Source: Candidatus Micrarchaeota archaeon
Lineage (GTDB): Archaea; Iainarchaeota; Iainarchaeia; JAADDC01
Assembly: GCA_027046625.1 (NCBI GenBank)
Contig: JALTXX010000009.1
Location: forward strand, 1-15,402
DNA length: 15,402 nt
Direction of reading: 5' to 3'
Shown here: positions 9,183 to 14,747 of the stretch, one piece after another
Numbering within the stretch: the stretch's first letter is position 1
Layout of the letters: the number at the start of each line of letters is the position of its first letter
Made by a program: the position numbers and the translations under genes
Notes under the pieces: generated by a model
Databases searched by the model: none
The model's input: only the letters and a program-made list of their open reading frames with translations
What the model was told of the DNA's origin: nothing

Positions 9183-10055
9183 TTATGCATATCTAACAGT
9201 ATCACACACTCTCAATCCTTCTCCTACCAAACAAACCTTCATCTGTTCCACTTCTGTAGGTATTACCTTTAAGGGAACACCAACGAATGTGCATGAACCA
9301 CTCCCACCGGGTTCTACGTTAAACTTATCACACTTTAGCATAGGAAGAACTAGGTTCACCAATCCACTGCTAGTATCCACGGTAAAGCCATACTTTCTAT
9401 CTACTCTTGCGGATGCAAGCAACGTACCATCCCTTGTATCGTAAACCTGAAGATACATCCTCCAGAGCGGGAGGGGAGTATCCGGGGAGGTGTTTGTTAC
9501 AGTAAATCCTATGGGTATCTTTTCGCAGAAGAAGTTTATCTCGACGAGAGCATTTGAATCATTCCATCCACTTAACCATAATTCCCCCACATGCTCTCCA
9601 CCGACATTATCCGGCTGTAGGGGAGCCCATAGATCATACTCCACATCATCCCCCGTAATGTACTTCCATCCCCCATCTGGTTCTACAGATCCAGGCTGTT
9701 GATACATTCCTATATACGCTCTGCTCCATCCCTTTCTTGACATTAGACTCTTCAGAAAACCGTTTTGAGCGGTGTTTTTGGGTGTAGCAAGGAACATACC
9801 CCTCTCTTTACAATAATTAAACGCATCCACCCAGTTCATGGGGGTGGAAACTGCCACGTAATGGTGGAAGTATAGGTTACCTATGGCGTTTTTGGGTGGT
9901 TTCTCCCTGTAAGCATCAAACATTACTGTATATACCGTTCCTCCCTTGGGAGAACTTTCTAACATCTGAGAAACACCCATATAGAGCAACGCTCCAATAG
10001 CAACCACTATGGCAATCAACAGCACCGTTGCCACGATGGGTGAGATACCTCTCAT
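9183..10055 (-). CDS. Type IV pilin-like protein with C-type lectin domain, copy 1
   Basis: MRG/ISPIVATVLLIAIVV class III signal peptide. CTLD motifs: WVDAFNYC..G.FLA, AYIG, WKYITG, W...QPDN..GE, WND, FFCE. Confidence 0.88.
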   Translation of the reverse strand: MRGISPIVATVLLIAIVVAIGALLYMGVSQMLESSPKGGTVYTVMFDAYREKPPKNAIGNLYFHHYVAVSTPMNWVDAFNYCKERGMFLATPKNTAQNGFLKSLMSRKGWSRAYIGMYQQPGSVEPDGGWKYITGDDVEYDLWAPLQPDNVGGEHVGELWLSGWNDSNALVEINFFCEKIPIGFTVTNTSPDTPLPLWRMYLQVYDTRDGTLLASARVDRKYGFTVDTSSGLVNLVLPMLKCDKFNVEPGGSGSCTFVGVPLKVIPTEVEQMKVCLVGEGLRVCDTVRYA

Positions 10056-10110
10056 CCTAACGAAAAAAACGATGAATAAATACCTTTCGGTTGGGAATTG
10101 TTATGTATAA
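10027..10110 (-). repeat. Pilin 5'-end/promoter repeat, copy 1 (T7 tract)
   Basis: Near-identical to 11686-11771 and 13185-13268. Minus strand reads CCGAAAGG-TATTTATT-CATCG-T7-CGTTAGG-ATG. Confidence 0.95.
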
Positions 10111-10145
10111 TAACCCCTTATATATATCTCCTCCCATTTAATAGT

Positions 10146-10475
10146 ATGGAACCCCTTTCCACCATTAAGCGAATAATAGAGGAGGAAGCCTCCCGCCTCA
10201 ACATAAAAATAGAGAGGATTATCCTCTTTGGAAGCAGAGCAAAGGGAACAGAGAGAAAGGATAGCGATTATGACATTCTAGTAATTACAAAGGGACAGCT
10301 GCTGTGGCGGAAGAAGATGACATTCTATAGAAATGTTCATAGACGCCTTGTAGGGCTATTGAACAGTCCCGTAGACCTTCTAATAGTACCTTCGGAGTGG
10401 TTTTGGCAGCATGCTAAGATGCCAACCTCCTTTGAGGCCGAGGTGATGGAAACTGGCAAGGAGCTATCCGTGTAG
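10146..10475 (+). CDS. Minimal nucleotidyltransferase (MNT) of an MNT-HEPN pair
   Basis: ILFGSRAKG...DSDYDILV (GSx10DxD) and VDLL. ATG 10146 has a TTATATA box ~28 nt upstream. Confidence 0.92.
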   Translation: MEPLSTIKRIIEEEASRLNIKIERIILFGSRAKGTERKDSDYDILVITKGQLLWRKKMTFYRNVHRRLVGLLNSPVDLLIVPSEWFWQHAKMPTSFEAEVMETGKELSV

Positions 10476-10836
10476 ATGGTTGGAAAAAGCTAAGAGAGAC
10501 CTAAGAATGGCGGAACTTGCCCTTGAAGAGGATTTGTTTGATGAGTCTGCCTTCCATTCCCAACAAGCGGCGGAAAAATCTCTGAAAGCTATTGTGGCAC
10601 TTTTGGGCAAAAGACCACCAAAAACTCATGACATAGACGTTATACTTCAGTCATTAAGAGATTTGGGTGTTGAGTGTCCCTATGAAGATGTTTCAAGCTT
10701 GACGGCGTATGCAGTGGAATCCAGATATCCTGGGCCTCCAATAGTGGAGGAGGAAGCCAAAGAAGCCCTTAATATAGCAAAAAGGATATATAATTGGAGC
10801 AAGACTTTCTTCAAGAAGAGAAACATTGATTGTTGA
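10453..10836 (+). CDS. HEPN domain protein (partner of MNT)
   Basis: WLEKAKRDL, FHSQQAAEKSLKA, PPKTHDI and AVESRYP motifs. Start uncertain: TTG 10480 removes the conserved Trp, while CTG 10453 follows AGGTGA. Confidence 0.88.
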   Translation: MARSYPCRWLEKAKRDLRMAELALEEDLFDESAFHSQQAAEKSLKAIVALLGKRPPKTHDIDVILQSLRDLGVECPYEDVSSLTAYAVESRYPGPPIVEEEAKEALNIAKRIYNWSKTFFKKRNIDC

Positions 10837-10850
10837 ATGTTTAGGTTATG

Positions 10851-11714
10851 TCAAGTGGCGGTAGTATCACACACTCTCAATCCTTTCCCTATAAGGCATG
10901 CCCTTATCTCAGTGGGTTCGAATGTTATCATGAAGGGAATCGCCTGAAGCGTACAGCTTGTACTACCAGATGGGGGAACAGTGCCAATATCACATTTTAC
11001 AACCGGTATGGAGAGGGACTGTACAGTACCTCCTATGTTTACATCAACCCTGATTGGTTCTCCAATCTTTTTTGAGGTGATTGTGTCACCTGAGAATGTC
11101 TCCACTTTGAGTGTTGTATTTACAAGGTACAAATTCCTTGTAGAAGACTGGTTGGACACAGTAAACCCAACTCTAATCTTCTCACATATGAAGGGAAGAG
11201 GTACGGACCCATTTCTATCGTCCCACCCTGTGGGTGTTATGACGGCCACATCCTCCCCGTTAGCATCATCTGGCTTGCCACCCATCCAAAAATCACCCAC
11301 TATAGGATCTCCCGTAATGTACTTCCACCCACCATCTGGCTCTGAAGATTCAGGGGATTGATACACCCCTATGTATGCTGCACTCCACCCCTTCGAGCTA
11401 ACAATACTTTTCAGCACGCTGTTTTGGCCATCCGTTCTGGGAGTGGCAAGGAACATCCCCCTCTCTTTACAGTAATTAAATGCATCTACCCAGTTCATGG
11501 GGGTAGAAACAGGCAGGTAATAGTGTAGATAGTGTATATAAGCACCTTTGGGAGCATTTTGCCTATAAACATCTAATAATACCCCAATGGGAGAGGTGTT
11601 CTCCGTTGTAGTCTGCTCAGAAAGTCTTACCACACCCATGTATATGATTATCCCGAGTGCCAATACTGTGGCTATGAGAAGGAGTGTTGCCACGATGGGT
11701 GAGATACCTCTCAT
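10851..11714 (-). CDS. Type IV pilin-like protein with C-type lectin domain, copy 2
   Basis: MRGISPIVATLLLIA signal; CTLD with KPDD..GE, WDD and FICE; four conserved C-terminal Cys. Confidence 0.88.
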   Translation of the reverse strand: MRGISPIVATLLLIATVLALGIIIYMGVVRLSEQTTTENTSPIGVLLDVYRQNAPKGAYIHYLHYYLPVSTPMNWVDAFNYCKERGMFLATPRTDGQNSVLKSIVSSKGWSAAYIGVYQSPESSEPDGGWKYITGDPIVGDFWMGGKPDDANGEDVAVITPTGWDDRNGSVPLPFICEKIRVGFTVSNQSSTRNLYLVNTTLKVETFSGDTITSKKIGEPIRVDVNIGGTVQSLSIPVVKCDIGTVPPSGSTSCTLQAIPFMITFEPTEIRACLIGKGLRVCDTTAT

Positions 11715-11778
11715 CCTAACGAAAAAAAAACGATGAATAAATACCTTTCGGTTGGGAATTGTTATGTATAAGAGGTGT
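11686..11778 (-). repeat. Pilin 5'-end/promoter repeat, copy 2 (T9 tract)
   Basis: Same repeat with A9 at 11722-11730. Shares an extra plus-strand GAGGTGT with copy 3. Confidence 0.95.
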
Positions 11779-11782
11779 GGGT

Positions 11783-12076
11783 ATGAAGGAAAGATGGGAA
11801 GTAATATTTACAGAGGATGCGGTGAAGGATATCAAGCGATTGGTAAAGGGTTTGGGTAAGGAAAGGACGGAAAAGGTTCTAAAGAAGCTTGTAGCACTCC
11901 TTGAAAACTTGGATGATTATATTTCGCGGGTAAAGCCTGTGAGAGGTTTAGAAGGTGTGTACAGGGTTCGTATTGGAACCCTTAGGGTAGCTTTTGTGTT
12001 GGAGAGGGAAGAGAGAAAGGTGAAAGTAATTGCAATAGGGTTTAGAGAATCCTTCTATGAGAAGCTTATGCGTTGA
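11783..12076 (+). CDS. relE: RelE/ParE-family toxin
   Basis: WEVIFTEDAVKDIKRL...YRVRIGTLRVAF...VIAIGFRESFY. GAGGTG Shine-Dalgarno-like site at 11772 before ATG 11783. Confidence 0.88.
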   Translation: MKERWEVIFTEDAVKDIKRLVKGLGKERTEKVLKKLVALLENLDDYISRVKPVRGLEGVYRVRIGTLRVAFVLEREERKVKVIAIGFRESFYEKLMR

Positions 12077-12278
12077 GCTCTTTTAATACTTCGTCAAAGG
12101 TGTATGTTTTTACCTCCCCCTTACTCAGCCTATCTACCCTCCTTTTTAGCTCCTCTACCTCCTCTTCTGTCAGTTCATCCTCCATGAGGGATATGATGTA
12201 GTCTATCTTTTCCTCCAGTGCAGAAACCCTCCTTCTCAGCTCTTCTATTTCTCTTTGAACAGATACACCTACAGGCAT
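12066..12278 (-). CDS. Putative archaeal RelB-like antitoxin
   Basis: 70 aa, N-terminal coiled coil, then EDELTEEEVEEL...TYTFDEVLKEL. Has its own TTTTTA box 30 nt upstream and is adjacent to relE. Confidence 0.7.
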   Translation of the reverse strand: MPVGVSVQREIEELRRRVSALEEKIDYIISLMEDELTEEEVEELKRRVDRLSKGEVKTYTFDEVLKELNA

Positions 12279-12322
12279 ATAGCACTATATACAAAAAGTA
12301 TGTAAAAAGATTTTAGTGCGTG

Positions 12323-13213
12323 CTAAGTGGTAGTATCACATATCTTGCCTCCTATATTTCCTCCTGTCAAACAAACCCTTAGGTTTTCAACTCCTGGCTC
12401 ATAGCTAACATTAAACGGAATGGCCCACACATCACATGTGGCGGTTTCTTTCGGAGGAATATGGAACGTAGAACACCTCAATGCCCCTATATCCAGGGAG
12501 TAAACAGTGCCTCCGCTGTCTACTTTGATGATATATCTTTTATCTACCCTTACAGATGTTGCAGCCTCCGGCAAGCCTCCCGGATATATTTGCAGAGTTG
12601 CATTAGAAAAGTGAAGGAACTTGGAGGAATGAAGATTCGAGATGAGGAATCCTATCCTAATACCTTCACATATAAAGGGACGATTGGTCTCCCCGTTTAC
12701 ATCATGCAACCCCTCCGTCATGGGAGAAACCCCCACGGCACCCACATTCTCCTCTGGTTGAGAGATCTCTGGCTGCCCTGCTGCCCATAGGATGTCGGGT
12801 ACCACTTCTCCTGTTAGATAATACCATTTAGCCTCCTCCTTAGGAATACCCGCCTTTCGATAGATACCTATGTGTGCTAGCGTCCACCCCTTCTCCTTTA
12901 GAATGCCTATTAGCCTGTTTAGCTGATCCCTATTTCTTGGCATGGCAAGGAACATCCCCCTTTCCTTACAATAATTAAATGCATCTACCCATCTTATATG
13001 TGTGGAAACGGGCACGTAGTAGTGTGAAAAGAACTGGTACGACCCAGGCGGCTCCTTCTTTAGGTATACATCAAGGGTGAGAGGATGTGAACTGCTGCCT
13101 AGAGTGGAGGTACCCTCCACCATCTGAGAAACACCCATATAGAGCAACGCCCCAATAGCAACCACTATGGCAATCAGCAGCACCGTTGCCACGATGGGCG
13201 AGATACCTCTCAT
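12323..13213 (-). CDS. Type IV pilin-like protein with C-type lectin domain, copy 3
   Basis: First 31 aa identical to copy 1. CTLD with WAAGQPE, LHD and FICE; four conserved C-terminal Cys. Confidence 0.88.
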   Translation of the reverse strand: MRGISPIVATVLLIAIVVAIGALLYMGVSQMVEGTSTLGSSSHPLTLDVYLKKEPPGSYQFFSHYYVPVSTHIRWVDAFNYCKERGMFLAMPRNRDQLNRLIGILKEKGWTLAHIGIYRKAGIPKEEAKWYYLTGEVVPDILWAAGQPEISQPEENVGAVGVSPMTEGLHDVNGETNRPFICEGIRIGFLISNLHSSKFLHFSNATLQIYPGGLPEAATSVRVDKRYIIKVDSGGTVYSLDIGALRCSTFHIPPKETATCDVWAIPFNVSYEPGVENLRVCLTGGNIGGKICDTTT

Positions 13214-13275
13214 CCTAACGAAAAAAACGATGAATAAATACCTTTCGGTTGGGAATTGTTATGTATAAGAGGTGT
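13185..13275 (-). repeat. Pilin 5'-end/promoter repeat, copy 3 (T7 tract)
   Basis: Same repeat with A7 at 13221-13227. Confidence 0.95.
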
Positions 13276-13277
13276 TA

Positions 13278-14747
13278 TTATTGCCTGTGCTCAAAATAAA
13301 TGTGTTTGGAGCCTACGATATTCATTCTTTTGCCTTCAGACAGCGATATATCCTTAAAGAATACTAGTTTGGGGATGGATGCAGCCGCAGGCTTTGCACC
13401 CGCTGGCGGATCTATCTCATGATGGACTTCTATTCCGTGTTTGTTTAACGTTCTAATGGTATGGTGCAAAATATCCATCACACCATAGGATTTGTTTGGT
13501 ACAAAGAATAGCTTCCCATCTTTCTCATACCCAATGAGGGAAACCCTCCCCTTTACATTGTGATCTGCATCTACAGCAGCTACCATGAGTACCGGCCCTA
13601 ATATTGCGGCATCCAGATAAAGTCCCCCGTCCTTGCTAGACAGACAAGAGTCTAATACATTGGTGTAATGTACAATATCATAAACATCCTCTGATATTTT
13701 GAGCTTTGGAGGATTTACCTTCATCTTTGTAAGCCTTCTTAATATTTCAATGGTGTTCTCTAGACCAAGCTTCTGAGCGATACCATCATTCTCAAGAGCT
13801 TTCAGATCCCCCTCTGTTACCTTGGCAGTTTCCGGTCTTTCTACAAGCTTCCAGTACAGCCTCCTTATGCGTTTCAAAAATCTTCTCTCTTTTGTGTTTG
13901 AACCCTTCTTTCTGAATAGATTTTCCATCTTTGTAGCCTCTTTTAGCCTTTCTACATCTTTGTAATACGTCTTTGGAAGGGCGTCAAGATTTTTCCTGTT
14001 GATCTCTCTTATCTTTTTCAGTATTTCATCTCCTACCCCATAGGGTTGGAACTTAATCCTGAACAAGTCTACTGGATCCTTGTAAGTTTCTACTATTTTG
14101 GAAAGGCGAGGATTTAGTACATAGTATTCCAACATCGAGATAGAGTGTGGCACCTTTTTCCAATTTATAAGCTCCTCAGGAACATACACACTATGCTTCA
14201 AGATCCTATCCTTGACTTTCTCAACGAAGTCTAACACATCTCTTGCATTCTTTCCTACCTCCTCCAGATCTACCCCATACATTTCTGCCGATCTAAGCAT
14301 GTCCACACGTTTCAATAGGCTTTTATAGCTTCTTTTACCAAGCTTTATACCCTCTTCCTCAAGGATTTTACTGGTTTTTAGGAAAGTGTTCAACAAACCA
14401 GGCTCTCTAATTATCCTCTGGGTGAGGGCTTTATTGACAAGGTATCCCCTAGAGATATGCTTTAGGAGCGGATGTGCCGAAAAGATATTCATATACTTGC
14501 TTATTAGCTCAGCATCCCCAAAGTTTATTACCCTAGAAAACACCTCCACAGGATGATACCCCTTGGTTTTCTTAGGATCCACGTGCCATTTTACAATTTT
14601 TGTCCAAAATTCAGGCTCCTTCCCCATCCCTTTATCATGAAGCTGCTTCACAACCTCAATTTTGCAATCATCAGGCACCTTTCTTACCAGCCTGTCCACC
14701 TTCTTTATATCTCTCTCAAAAGAAGGGACCTCACATATTCTCCCCAT
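13278..14747 (-). CDS. Hypothetical protein (Lys-rich; C-terminal alpha/beta region with DSCLS motif)
   Basis: 489-aa ORF with GGAAAG-TTTTTATT 29 nt upstream of the ATG. No recognised family. Confidence 0.8.
   Translation of the reverse strand: MGRICEVPSFERDIKKVDRLVRKVPDDCKIEVVKQLHDKGMGKEPEFWTKIVKWHVDPKKTKGYHPVEVFSRVINFGDAELISKYMNIFSAHPLLKHISRGYLVNKALTQRIIREPGLLNTFLKTSKILEEEGIKLGKRSYKSLLKRVDMLRSAEMYGVDLEEVGKNARDVLDFVEKVKDRILKHSVYVPEELINWKKVPHSISMLEYYVLNPRLSKIVETYKDPVDLFRIKFQPYGVGDEILKKIREINRKNLDALPKTYYKDVERLKEATKMENLFRKKGSNTKERRFLKRIRRLYWKLVERPETAKVTEGDLKALENDGIAQKLGLENTIEILRRLTKMKVNPPKLKISEDVYDIVHYTNVLDSCLSSKDGGLYLDAAILGPVLMVAAVDADHNVKGRVSLIGYEKDGKLFFVPNKSYGVMDILHHTIRTLNKHGIEVHHEIDPPAGAKPAAASIPKLVFFKDISLSEGKRMNIVGSKHIYFEHRQ

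Follow-up and report, generated by a model that had tools for sequence, protein, structure and literature searches.

The DNA analyzed here, hereafter the window, is a stretch of 15,402 nt (positions 1 to 15,402 of contig JALTXX010000009.1, assembly GCA_027046625.1) from Candidatus Micrarchaeota archaeon (Iainarchaeota; JAADDC01), a tiny archaeon from a hydrothermal vent. Its genome is available as a 652-kb, 94%-complete metagenome assembly in 18 contigs with a depth of about 10-14x, and the tract lengths discussed below were taken from the contigs. Three paralogous genes on the minus strand of the window encode predicted lectin-pilins of 290 aa (paralog 1, 9183-10055), 287 aa (paralog 2, 10851-11714) and 296 aa (paralog 3, 12323-13213), the third copy being 44% identical to the second. 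In paralog 1, a class-III signal peptide (MRG/ISPIVATVLL..., the slash marking the cleavage position) is followed by a C-type lectin domain and then by a C-terminal domain, and all copies begin with MRG-ISPIVAT. The C-type lectin domain (Lectin_C, PF00059, gathering cut-off 22.6) exceeded its cut-off in copies 1 (E=8.5e-09, 36.5 bits) and 2 (E=6.8e-11, 43.3 bits) and reached 17.5 bits, under the cut-off, in copy 3; the lectin role is a predicted one. The archaeal type IV pilin N-terminal domain (arch_flag_Nterm, TIGR02537, cut-off 20) was over cut-off in two of the three window copies (30.2 bits in copy 1 and 29.2 bits in copy 3) and scored 17.0 bits in copy 2, while Pfam Pilin_N gave a score of 17.5 against a cut-off of 25.2. 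In addition, a profile search of the genome detected candidate pilin assembly genes over cut-off, namely two Peptidase_A24 and seven T2SSE matches. The N-terminal motif R-[GS]-x-S-P-I-V-A-T is retained through different codons in one variant of the family with a shorter tract (T6, see below) and in a sister genome, the only one of 14 genomes of the taxonomic family searched in which the motif is present. Because this motif has been kept, TIGR02537 exceeds its cut-off in two of the three copies and Peptidase_A24 and T2SSE genes are present, the annotated ATG, judged from sequence, is the real start. A search of 5.8 billion proteins found no homologues beyond the organism's own paralogs.

Each of the three ORFs is preceded, on the same strand, by CCGAAAGG-TATTTATT-CATCG-(T)n-CGTTAGG-ATG, in which CCGAAAGG corresponds to the BRE and TATTTATT to the TATA box. 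Upstream of copy 1, the conserved cassette opens with TTATACATAAC (10100-10110) and continues through a block at 10070-10090 that contains the BRE (10083-10090), the TATA box (10075-10082) and CATCG (10070-10074), a poly(T)7 tract (10063-10069) and CGTTAGG (10056-10062), which sets a tract-to-ATG distance of 7 nt. The corresponding features of copy 2 are TTATACATAAC at 11761-11771, the block at 11731-11751 (BRE 11744-11751, TATA box 11736-11743, CATCG 11731-11735), a poly(T)9 tract at 11722-11730 and CGTTAGG at 11715-11721, and those of copy 3 are TTATACATAAC at 13258-13268, the block at 13228-13248 (BRE 13241-13248, TATA box 13233-13240, CATCG 13228-13232), a second poly(T)7 tract at 13221-13227 and CGTTAGG at 13214-13220. 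All of these features lie on the minus strand, and the tracts appear as A-runs on the plus strand. A sequence-only reading of the window had described the cassette as identical in the three copies save for n = 7, 9 and 7; its coordinates and sequence were confirmed, and the identity extends further than it claimed, from TTATACATAAC, 22 nt 5' of the TATA box, to approximately the first nine codons. The full cassette, near-identical between copies, thus comprises TTATACATAAC, BRE/TATA, CATCG, (T)n, CGTTAGG, the leaderless ATG and the class-III signal peptide.

Genome-wide, 10 exact matches to the cassette pattern were counted compared to none for a reversed control, so its recurrence is more than chance. 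A relaxed search of the genome retrieved 13 cassettes, with one T6, two T7, five T8 and five T9 tracts, and both T7 cassettes fall within the window. The family comprises 12 full-length ORFs of 283-297 aa, all of which are intact. In the aligned cassettes, the 21-nt BRE-to-CATCG segment contains a single variable column (1/21, n=11 copies) and the 10 nt of CGTTAGG and ATG contain none (0/10, invariant in all 12 ATG-type cassettes), whereas the poly(T) tract between them occurs in three lengths and 25 of the next 60 coding nucleotides are variable. TTATACATAAC is the commonest 11-mer genome-wide. No Shine-Dalgarno sequence lies at a usable distance in CGTTAGG, and the A/T-rich box, the A-rich BRE and the lack of a Shine-Dalgarno sequence would be those of an archaeal leaderless BRE/TATA promoter. 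The simple sequence repeat (SSR) lies inside the promoter/5' coding region of the putatively regulated genes.

Leaderless genes predominate in this genome, and its promoters define a spacing rule. Among 608 non-pilin genes, the starts of A/T runs peak at -30 from the ATG (-32:19, -31:30, -30:38, -29:29, -28:23, -27:15, -26:6; background ~8) and their ends at -23. Run ends in 165 aligned non-pilin promoters are distributed similarly (-25:18, -24:35, -23:34, -22:30, -21:19, -20:6, -19:5), giving a genome-wide TATA 3' edge 23 nt before the ATG and a usual range of 21-25. Across these 165 promoters, positions -5 to -3 relative to the A/T-run start are enriched for A, matching CGAAA-GG-TATTTATT, which argues that the TATA register is right; the BRE register used above agrees with this profile as well. 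The earlier assignment of TATA-dependent leaderless promoters therefore holds, given this enrichment and the -30 and -23 peaks, as do the distances of 27, 29 and 27 nt that it had measured from the start of the TATA box to the ATG of copies 1, 2 and 3; the four comparison promoters recounted by eye (Prx 29, ORF 14747 29, MNT 28 and antitoxin 30) agree as well. The pilin TATA 3' edges, at -22 (T9), -21 (T8), -20 (T7) and -18 (T6), occupy the short edge of the genome range. The T9 spacing of 22 nt is common among genome promoters, and the T7 spacing of 20 nt is at the extreme short edge, being found in 6 of the 165 aligned promoters and, among the 608 genes, at a count of 11 versus a background of ~7 per position.

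The tracts are also exceptional as homopolymers. A/T runs of length 6, 7, 8 and 9 were observed 382, 28, 6 and 5 times, respectively, compared to 359, 101, 27 and 8 expected under an order-3 Markov model, and only two G/C runs of at least 7 were observed versus ~57 expected. Pilin tracts account for 10 of the 11 A/T runs of at least 8 in a genome that is otherwise depleted of long homopolymers. The repeats thus exceed what composition predicts and are concentrated at surface genes, with copies of single origin; since the 13 tracts come from one ancestor, the 10/11 enrichment represents one evolutionary event that was amplified. A profile search of the 94%-complete genome found no match to MutS_V or NucS_C, the mismatch repair domains looked for. 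In the sister genome, a (GA)5-7 repeat is present within the leader-peptide coding region at the 5' ends of five homologous pilin genes. The start codon served by the TATA box is in frame in only one of these five copies; in the other four, d mod 3 = 2 and a stop follows after 11-14 aa, while the three contig-complete pilin copies retain intact ORFs of 285-292 aa. Pilin 5' ends hold five of the eight (GA)>=5 loci and two of the three (CA)>=5 loci of that genome. Taken together, the presence of the sole long homopolymers of the genome at a large surface-protein family, the absence of detected mismatch repair and the SSRs of the sister genome in the same family suggest a genomic signature that fits a contingency locus.

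On this basis, the window tracts may belong to a group of 13 poly(T) spacers, spread over the genome and prone to slippage, that act as a putative slippage-driven expression switch, a reading that we hold tentatively, at a little under an even chance. Archaeal RNA polymerase would set the transcription start by its distance from the TATA box, ~23 +/- 2 nt from the 3' edge, and a leaderless mRNA would have to start at or close to its AUG, such that tract length would determine the share of transcripts retaining the AUG. Spacings of 22, 21, 20 and 18 nt give a predicted productive expression of T9 > T8 > T7 >> T6. Replication slippage by plus or minus one T could then turn individual adhesin-like pilins up or down, possibly ON or OFF, and a population would show changing combinations of lectin pilins. 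The model presumes a useful slippage rate, the position of the transcription start and an effect of length on expression. The ranking proposed in the sequence-only reading, with copy 2 ON and copies 1 and 3 OFF, is likewise drawn from spacing only. The order T9 > T8 > T7 >> T6 may err in detail, because the modal spacing puts the start at +2 even for T9. With T9 itself 1 nt below the mode of 23, graded and binary effects are equally likely.

The main alternative is neutral length wobble in a tolerant spacer, in which a T-rich proximal element would aid melting, slippage and gene conversion would shift the tract among 7-9, the polymerase would still pick the A of the ATG and all copies would be expressed alike, with any regulation exerted by an upstream-binding factor. 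We regard this as a serious possibility, yet one appreciably below even. In M. jannaschii, the distance from the TATA 3' edge to the start site is 23 +/- 2 in 126 of 134 promoters, and an A+T-rich proximal element between the two influences efficiency and start choice (PMC2699501); in T. kodakarensis, the spacing is ~23 bp and 5' UTRs of up to 8 nt are counted as leaderless (PMC4247193), figures that also support the switch model. Since 21-25 is normal in M. jannaschii and 20-22 is only 1-3 nt under the mode, T8, T9 and perhaps T7 may all work, and the spacings of 21-22 are within the normal range of this genome too. The tract occupies positions -8 to -16, the place described for the proximal/WW element, all 12 full-length ORFs are intact, and the conserved upstream TTATACATAAC is a candidate regulator site. 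Against this, neither a homopolymer nor a marked A/T signal is seen between -8 and -16 in other promoters of the genome, so promoters here do not generally require such a tract; the genome avoids runs of at least 7 elsewhere, so 13 uninterrupted tracts call for a reason; all pilin spacings are shorter than the mode, none reaching or exceeding it; and frame-switching SSRs occur in this family in the sister species.

The evolution of the tracts bears on both readings. Tract length does not track the gene tree (six changes needed, compared to a minimum of three and a shuffled mean of 6.2), and a one-T difference separates the members of two of the three sister pairs with good support. Both observations speak for the switch, although the differences between sister genes may reflect cassette exchange, not slippage. 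T8 is tied to a SNP haplotype: codon 4 is ATT in four of five T8 cassettes versus none of seven T7/T9 cassettes (Fisher p ~0.01, or 0.02 if cassettes C1 and C12 are one locus). This linkage implies that length states are co-inherited with the haplotype, probably via gene conversion; it is in line with neutral wobble and is evidence against very fast switching. The three copies of 7/9/7 in the sequence-only reading had the right lengths within what is in fact a family of 13 cassettes that includes T8 and T6; with T8 linked to the SNP, exchange of cassettes and a moderate stability are indicated, and not very rapid switching. Its phase-variation proposal is partly supported: the promoter and the short-edge spacing of T7 stand and the genomic signature fits a contingency locus, and the T8-SNP linkage weighs against the very rapid form.

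It is highly improbable that a single true length exists and that 7/8/9 arose from homopolymer miscalls or mis-phasing among near-identical repeats during sequencing or assembly. The 18 contigs have a depth of only about 10-14x, four cassettes are at contig ends, and the cassette exceeds a 31-mer, so that public contigs break there and lengths are unphased to loci. Length variation was seen between paralogs, metagenome scans and a genome scan having found no related strain. On the other hand, one contig was assembled through all three window copies, and random miscalls would not give a correlation between length and a linked SNP. A separate contig, in run X1, has one T fewer at 11722 (T8), which indicates that more than one tract length is present in the data; its depth of 59.2, which at roughly 12x would correspond to some five copies, is not that of a rare error variant. 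This contig provides no independent support, because the X1 run is probably the source sample.

Finally, a role of the oligo(T) chiefly as an archaeal terminator or insulator against upstream read-through, with length above ~6 unimportant, is very unlikely: oligo(T) is the archaeal termination signal, a pentaU motif being named in PMC2151090, and the copy 3 tract lies 51-57 nt past the stop of the same-strand ORF 13278-14747, but copies 1 and 2 have divergent upstream neighbours (MNT 10146+ and ParE-like 11759+) and hence no same-strand transcript to stop, the terminators of a genome with 382 A/T6 and only 28 A/T7 runs evidently do not need 7-9, and the fixed place of the tract, with the TATA box on one side and the ATG on the other, is left unexplained.

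If the slippage-driven switch is real, the wider picture would be the first archaeal SSR phase variation, in which a DPANN-like ectosymbiont varies ~12 lectin-tipped pilins by poly(T) "start-codon clipping" (transcription starting before or inside the AUG) and its sister uses (GA)n/(CA)n leader-peptide frameshifts; as a whole, this picture is rather doubtful. Two SSR types at one gene family would, if true, imply that stochastic switching of adhesins, as cells attach to a host, has been under selection for a long time. Simple-repeat phase variation is characteristic of host-adapted bacteria, and contingency loci would then have arisen independently with the archaeal transcription machinery, which is eukaryote-like. 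A start site shifted across the AUG of a leaderless mRNA would be a new gene switch, and lectin-tipped pilins would be the variable organelles through which ultra-small symbiotic archaea, whose mode of attachment is little understood, contact their hosts. No report of simple-repeat phase variation in archaea was found in the literature searched, and the available part of a 2025 centenary review names archaea only as a future extension (PMC11868660).

Several known systems resemble the one described here. With archaeal type IV/adhesive pilins such as UpsA and Aap, the family shares the TIGR02537 domain and weak N-terminal UpsA matches, and the genome encodes homologues of the prepilin peptidase and of the T2SSE ATPase; unlike those pilins, its members have a body made of a C-type lectin domain (PF00059) and a C-terminal domain and form an expanded set of 12 genes within 652 kb. 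Among the A/T tracts known to phase-vary in bacteria, lengths of 7-9 count as short, which weighs against the switch. Within the sources available, the established SSR contingency loci are all bacterial, unlike the archaeal tracts here, which are short (7-9 A/T). Those of Neisseria, Haemophilus and Mycoplasma mycoides (Vmm) likewise have an SSR at adhesin or pilus genes, either in the spacer of the promoter or in the part that codes for the leader peptide, and SSRs are over-represented at surface-protein genes, as far as the accessible parts of the sources describe (PMC11868660, PMC10502178); the (GA)n in the leader peptide of the sister genome corresponds to the textbook translational type of SSR contingency locus. 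A further likeness is to the Vlp system found in Mycoplasma hyorhinis, a minimal-genome host-associated organism with a multigene surface family, in which each paralog has its own conserved promoter and signal peptide and slippage of a core-promoter homopolymeric A/T tract, a poly(A) stretch, leads to independent, combinatorial expression (PMC10502178, citing Citti and Wise 1995). Every pilin paralog here similarly has its own promoter and signal-peptide cassette with a core-promoter homopolymer, a candidate switch, whereas Vlp, for which switching has been demonstrated, uses a sigma-factor promoter of the bacterial kind, whose elements fit together differently as tract length changes. The Vlp tract sits between -35 and -10. 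The pilin tract does not lie between such bacterial elements, and the archaeal family is thus an analogue of the Vlp type and not a true member of it.

The three lectin-pilin paralogs of the window lie on the minus strand at 9183–10055 (copy 1, 290 aa), 10851–11714 (copy 2, 287 aa) and 12323–13213 (copy 3, 296 aa), and all of them are preceded by CCGAAAGG-TATTTATT-CATCG-(T)n-CGTTAGG-ATG, with n = 7, 9 and 7, respectively. When the three upstream regions are aligned, identity extends from TTATACATAAC, located 22 nt 5′ of the TATA box, to approximately codon nine, and the T-run is the sole indel. The encoded proteins begin with MRG-ISPIVATVLLIA and score 30.2, 17.0 and 29.2 bits (copies 1–3; cut-off 20) against TIGR02537, the archaellin/type IV pilin N-terminal domain, and 36.5, 43.3 and 17.5 bits (cut-off 22.6) against Pfam Lectin_C. 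Two other ways of starting these genes were considered. A promoter further upstream at TTATACATAA, which would give a 29-nt leader, was ruled out because this leader has no Shine-Dalgarno (SD) motif and the downstream BRE/TATA fits the geometry of the genome. The ATG was also preferred to an in-frame GTG at codon 8 behind an SD-like AGAGGT, because the residues ahead of this GTG are kept at the amino acid level while their codons differ; initiation at the GTG is a possible fate of transcripts lacking the AUG.

The cassette anatomy, tract lengths and coordinates given by the sequence-only reading were right, and they could be extended to 13 cassettes across the genome (652,019 bp in 18 contigs, of which the window is C9; 94% complete, 44% G+C). 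The exact pattern had 10 matches and its reversed control none; a relaxed search gave the full 13. These comprise two T7 cassettes, both within the window, five T8 cassettes (contigs C1, C2, C7:55722, C11:35562 and C12), five T9 cassettes (C4, C9:11714, C11:10180, C16:59948 and C16:58268) and a divergent T6 paralog (C7:53925–54797, minus strand) with CGTTGT, whose GTG start codon is only 18 nt away from the TATA 3′ edge. The T6 paralog lies 62 nt past the stop codon of another pilin gene, and it may be silent, co-transcribed or differently started. Twelve ORFs are full-length (283–297 aa). The remaining cassette, on C1, is cut off by a contig end, and because its 110 nt match the C12 copy exactly, the two may represent one locus. 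Apart from the tract, the core hardly changes: only 1 of 21 columns from BRE to CATCG (11 cassettes) and none of the 10 columns of CGTTAGG plus ATG (12 cassettes) vary, versus 25 of the 60 coding columns that follow. In a search of 5.8 billion proteins, all 11 matches were the organism's own paralogs. Identical or 99%-identical proteins (P0002, P0003, P0005 and P0011) are found on contigs of 33,455, 55,026, 9,537 and 8,713 nt, and since no contigs of these lengths occur in the genome studied here, another assembly, from this population or one very close to it, seems to exist.

Promoter geometry was derived from positional k-mer and A/T-run histograms, with A/T runs of at least 6 upstream of 608 non-pilin first-ATG ORFs as the spacing set. 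Run starts reach their maximum 30 nt ahead of the ATG (19, 30, 38, 29, 23, 15 and 6 starts at −32 to −26, background approximately 8 per position) and run ends at −23, so the genome appears to be dominated by leaderless genes with the TATA 3′ edge 23 nt from the ATG; an SD motif is also present for other genes. In 165 promoters aligned on the run start, A is enriched at −5 to −3 (0.36–0.40), and the AAA of the pilin CGAAA-GG-TATTTATT coincides exactly with these positions, which bears out the TATA register assigned by the sequence-only reading. Published archaeal promoter maps agree with this spacing in their available excerpts: 23 ± 2 nt in 126 of 134 promoters of M. jannaschii, where an intervening A+T-rich proximal element influences efficiency and start choice (PMC2699501), about 23 bp in T. 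kodakarensis (PMC4247193), and a TATA centre at −27/−28 with BRE CGAAA and a WW element at −10/−11 in haloarchaea (PMC2151090). The ORF directly upstream of copy 3 (13278–14747, minus strand, 489 aa), which has no match in Pfam or NCBIfam, carries a pilin-like promoter, GGAAAG-TTTTTATT, 29 nt before its ATG.

From the TATA 3′ edge to the start codon, the pilin genes measure 22 (T9), 21 (T8), 20 (T7) and 18 nt (T6 variant). Run ends in the 165 promoters are distributed as 18, 35, 34, 30, 19, 6 and 5 at −25 to −19, and therefore the entire family lies on the short side: T9 is a common spacing, still 1 nt short of the modal value, T8 is found fairly often, T7 occupies the extreme edge and T6 is outside. 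If the polymerase initiates at its usual distance, transcription from a shortened tract would begin at +2, +3 or +4 instead of at the A of the ATG, and the G at +3, preceded by T, would be a good pyrimidine-purine initiator. Leaderless mRNAs tolerate additional 5′ nucleotides but cannot do without the AUG; the effect of tract length should therefore be one-sided, with the family poised at the threshold. The start-codon clipping proposed earlier is thus plausible from spacing, but a graded effect is as likely as an ON/OFF switch.

The tracts are also unusual within their genome. Compared with an order-3 Markov model of the genome, A/T runs of 6 are about as frequent as expected (382 observed, 359 expected), and there is a sharp length cut-off between 6 and 7, with 28 runs of 7 (101 expected), 6 of 8 (27 expected) and 5 of 9 (8 expected). 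G/C runs of 7 or more number 2 against about 57 expected; both are runs of exactly 7 (42 expected), and none reaches 8. In this genome so poor in long homopolymers, the pilin tracts make up 10 of the 11 A/T runs of at least 8; the eleventh is an A8 at C4:54620. Neither MutS_V nor NucS_C domains were found, which in a genome 94% complete does not prove their absence. Missing mismatch repair, if real, would leave slippage unrepaired and would explain why long runs were purged and why the tracts that remain are mutable. The census points to strong selection against runs prone to slippage, in a genome perhaps without mismatch repair. On the pilin protein tree, tract length is unclustered, requiring 6 changes (minimum 3) against a shuffled mean of 6.2, with 122 of 200 shuffles as low; of the three sister pairs with good support, two differ by a single T.

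A pilin match was present in 6 genomes, including the one under study, when 41 relatives were searched, and only a sister species of the same genus (G004) has a family (7 matches, approximately 30% identity). The motif G-[IV]-S-P-I-V-[AS]-T, searched in DNA, occurred only in these two among 14 genomes of the taxonomic family. Five G004 copies, at repeat loci L024 (contig C48 of that genome), L029 (C4), L030 (C85), L031 (C2) and L039 (C70), have their own conserved 5′ block, consisting of a TATA-served ATG or GTG, then (GA)5–7, which encodes (RE)n, followed by ...NNFS-[RK]-G|VSPIVATLL. The C48 copy (n = 5) has an in-frame ATG 30 nt past TTTAAAA (MTGPERETINNFSRGVSPIVATLL...); the starts of the C2, C4, C70 and C85 copies are out of frame (d mod 3 = 2) and run into a stop after 11–14 aa. 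Downstream ORFs are intact (285–292 aa) in the three contig-complete copies. Two more pilin-type 5′ ends carry (CA)n (L026/L059 on C14 and L062 on C113), one of which starts in frame as ATG-CC(AC)n-AGG-GGC (MPHTHRGISPIV...). Altogether, 5 of the 8 (GA) loci with at least five units and 2 of the 3 such (CA) loci in G004 lie at pilin-type 5′ ends. An intact gene without an in-frame start, one repeat unit off, is the classic picture of translational phase variation, and judged from their sequences, these 5′ ends look like that. The two sister species thus bear different simple sequence repeats at the 5′ end of one surface-protein family; of the indirect evidence for a switch in the genome of the window, this is the strongest.

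The earlier interpretation gains partial support from the cassette anatomy, the genome-wide spacing, the homopolymer counts and the repeats of the sister species, and a contingency-type switch is the best single reading, to be held tentatively. Nearly as likely is that tract length wobbles neutrally within a tolerant spacer. ATT is the fourth codon of 4 of 5 T8 cassettes versus none of 7 T7/T9 cassettes (Fisher p approximately 0.01, or 0.02 with C1 and C12 counted as a single locus), and therefore tract length is co-inherited with a nearby SNP. The mosaic first 70 nt suggest that paralogs exchange the cassette by gene conversion; sister genes may thus differ through such exchange instead of recent slippage. 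Tracts of 7–9 A/T are short by bacterial standards, and such short, SNP-linked tracts speak against a fast switch. No related strain for locus-by-locus tract comparison was found in two metagenome scans and one genome-collection scan; the first scan gave no matches, and a 20-mer gave 12 + 11, all unrelated chance matches. That the length differences are an assembly or sequencing artefact is improbable. Contigs from the three sequencing runs that were compared with the window end at the cassette the copies share, and two of the runs (X2 and X3) added nothing useful on the pilin region. In the third, a variant shorter by one T has a depth of 59.2, worth approximately five copies at an organism depth of approximately 10–14x. 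The run containing that variant is probably the source sample of the genome, whose only public run is a hydrothermal-vent metagenome.

The surroundings of the cassettes offer further observations. An MNT/HEPN toxin-antitoxin module (10098–10836, plus strand) separates copies 1 and 2, and a ParE-like toxin with its antitoxin (11759–12278) separates copies 2 and 3. One MNT/HEPN flank (...TATTAAATGGGAGG...GGGGTTA) lies directly 5′ of a T7, a T8 and a T9 cassette (window 10098–10836, plus strand; C7:~55780–55903; C16:~58330–58400), and pilin and toxin-antitoxin module seem to have been duplicated as one unit. The word TTATACATAAC, which opens every pilin cassette (10100–10110, 11761–11771 and 13258–13268 in the window, minus strand), is the commonest 11-mer of the genome, with 33 copies versus 25 for the word from the tRNA T-arm. 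The 20 copies that have no link to pilins include nine on C18, where an inverted pair occurs at 29715/29757, and no conserved flanks were seen around the copies in this genome; a regulator site, a recombination site and an uptake-like sequence are all possibilities. The longest dinucleotide repeat of the genome, (AC)13, at a contig end (C15:12849–12874), sits 60 nt past a TTATACATAAC motif. A family of approximately 24 copies in the 11-mer counts, with ATTAGTCTGATTTGAAC and TTTGGGGTTGAAA among its words, resembles a CRISPR array. Seven T2SSE-type secretion/pilus ATPase matches and two prepilin peptidases exceed the cut-off (C3, C4, C10 and C16), an unusually heavy investment in pilus-like machinery for a 652-kb genome. 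A diversity-generating retroelement was considered as a source of lectin variation, and no RVT_1 match is present in the 94%-complete assembly.

With regard to known systems, no case of repeat-based phase variation in archaea or DPANN was found in the available text of the literature searched: the accessible parts of PMC11868660, PMC10791045 and PMC11001535 offer only general references or an inversion system of a haloarchaeal virus, and those of PMC2831843 describe a homopolymer count for coding genes from 18 archaeal genomes. The closest parallels are bacterial. As described in the available portion of PMC10502178, the Vlp system of M. hyorhinis consists of paralogous surface lipoproteins, each with a conserved promoter in which the length of a poly(A) tract switches transcription; in Vmm of M. 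mycoides, a dinucleotide repeat lies within the promoter spacer. The poly(T) system of the window would work like both, but is not a member of either.
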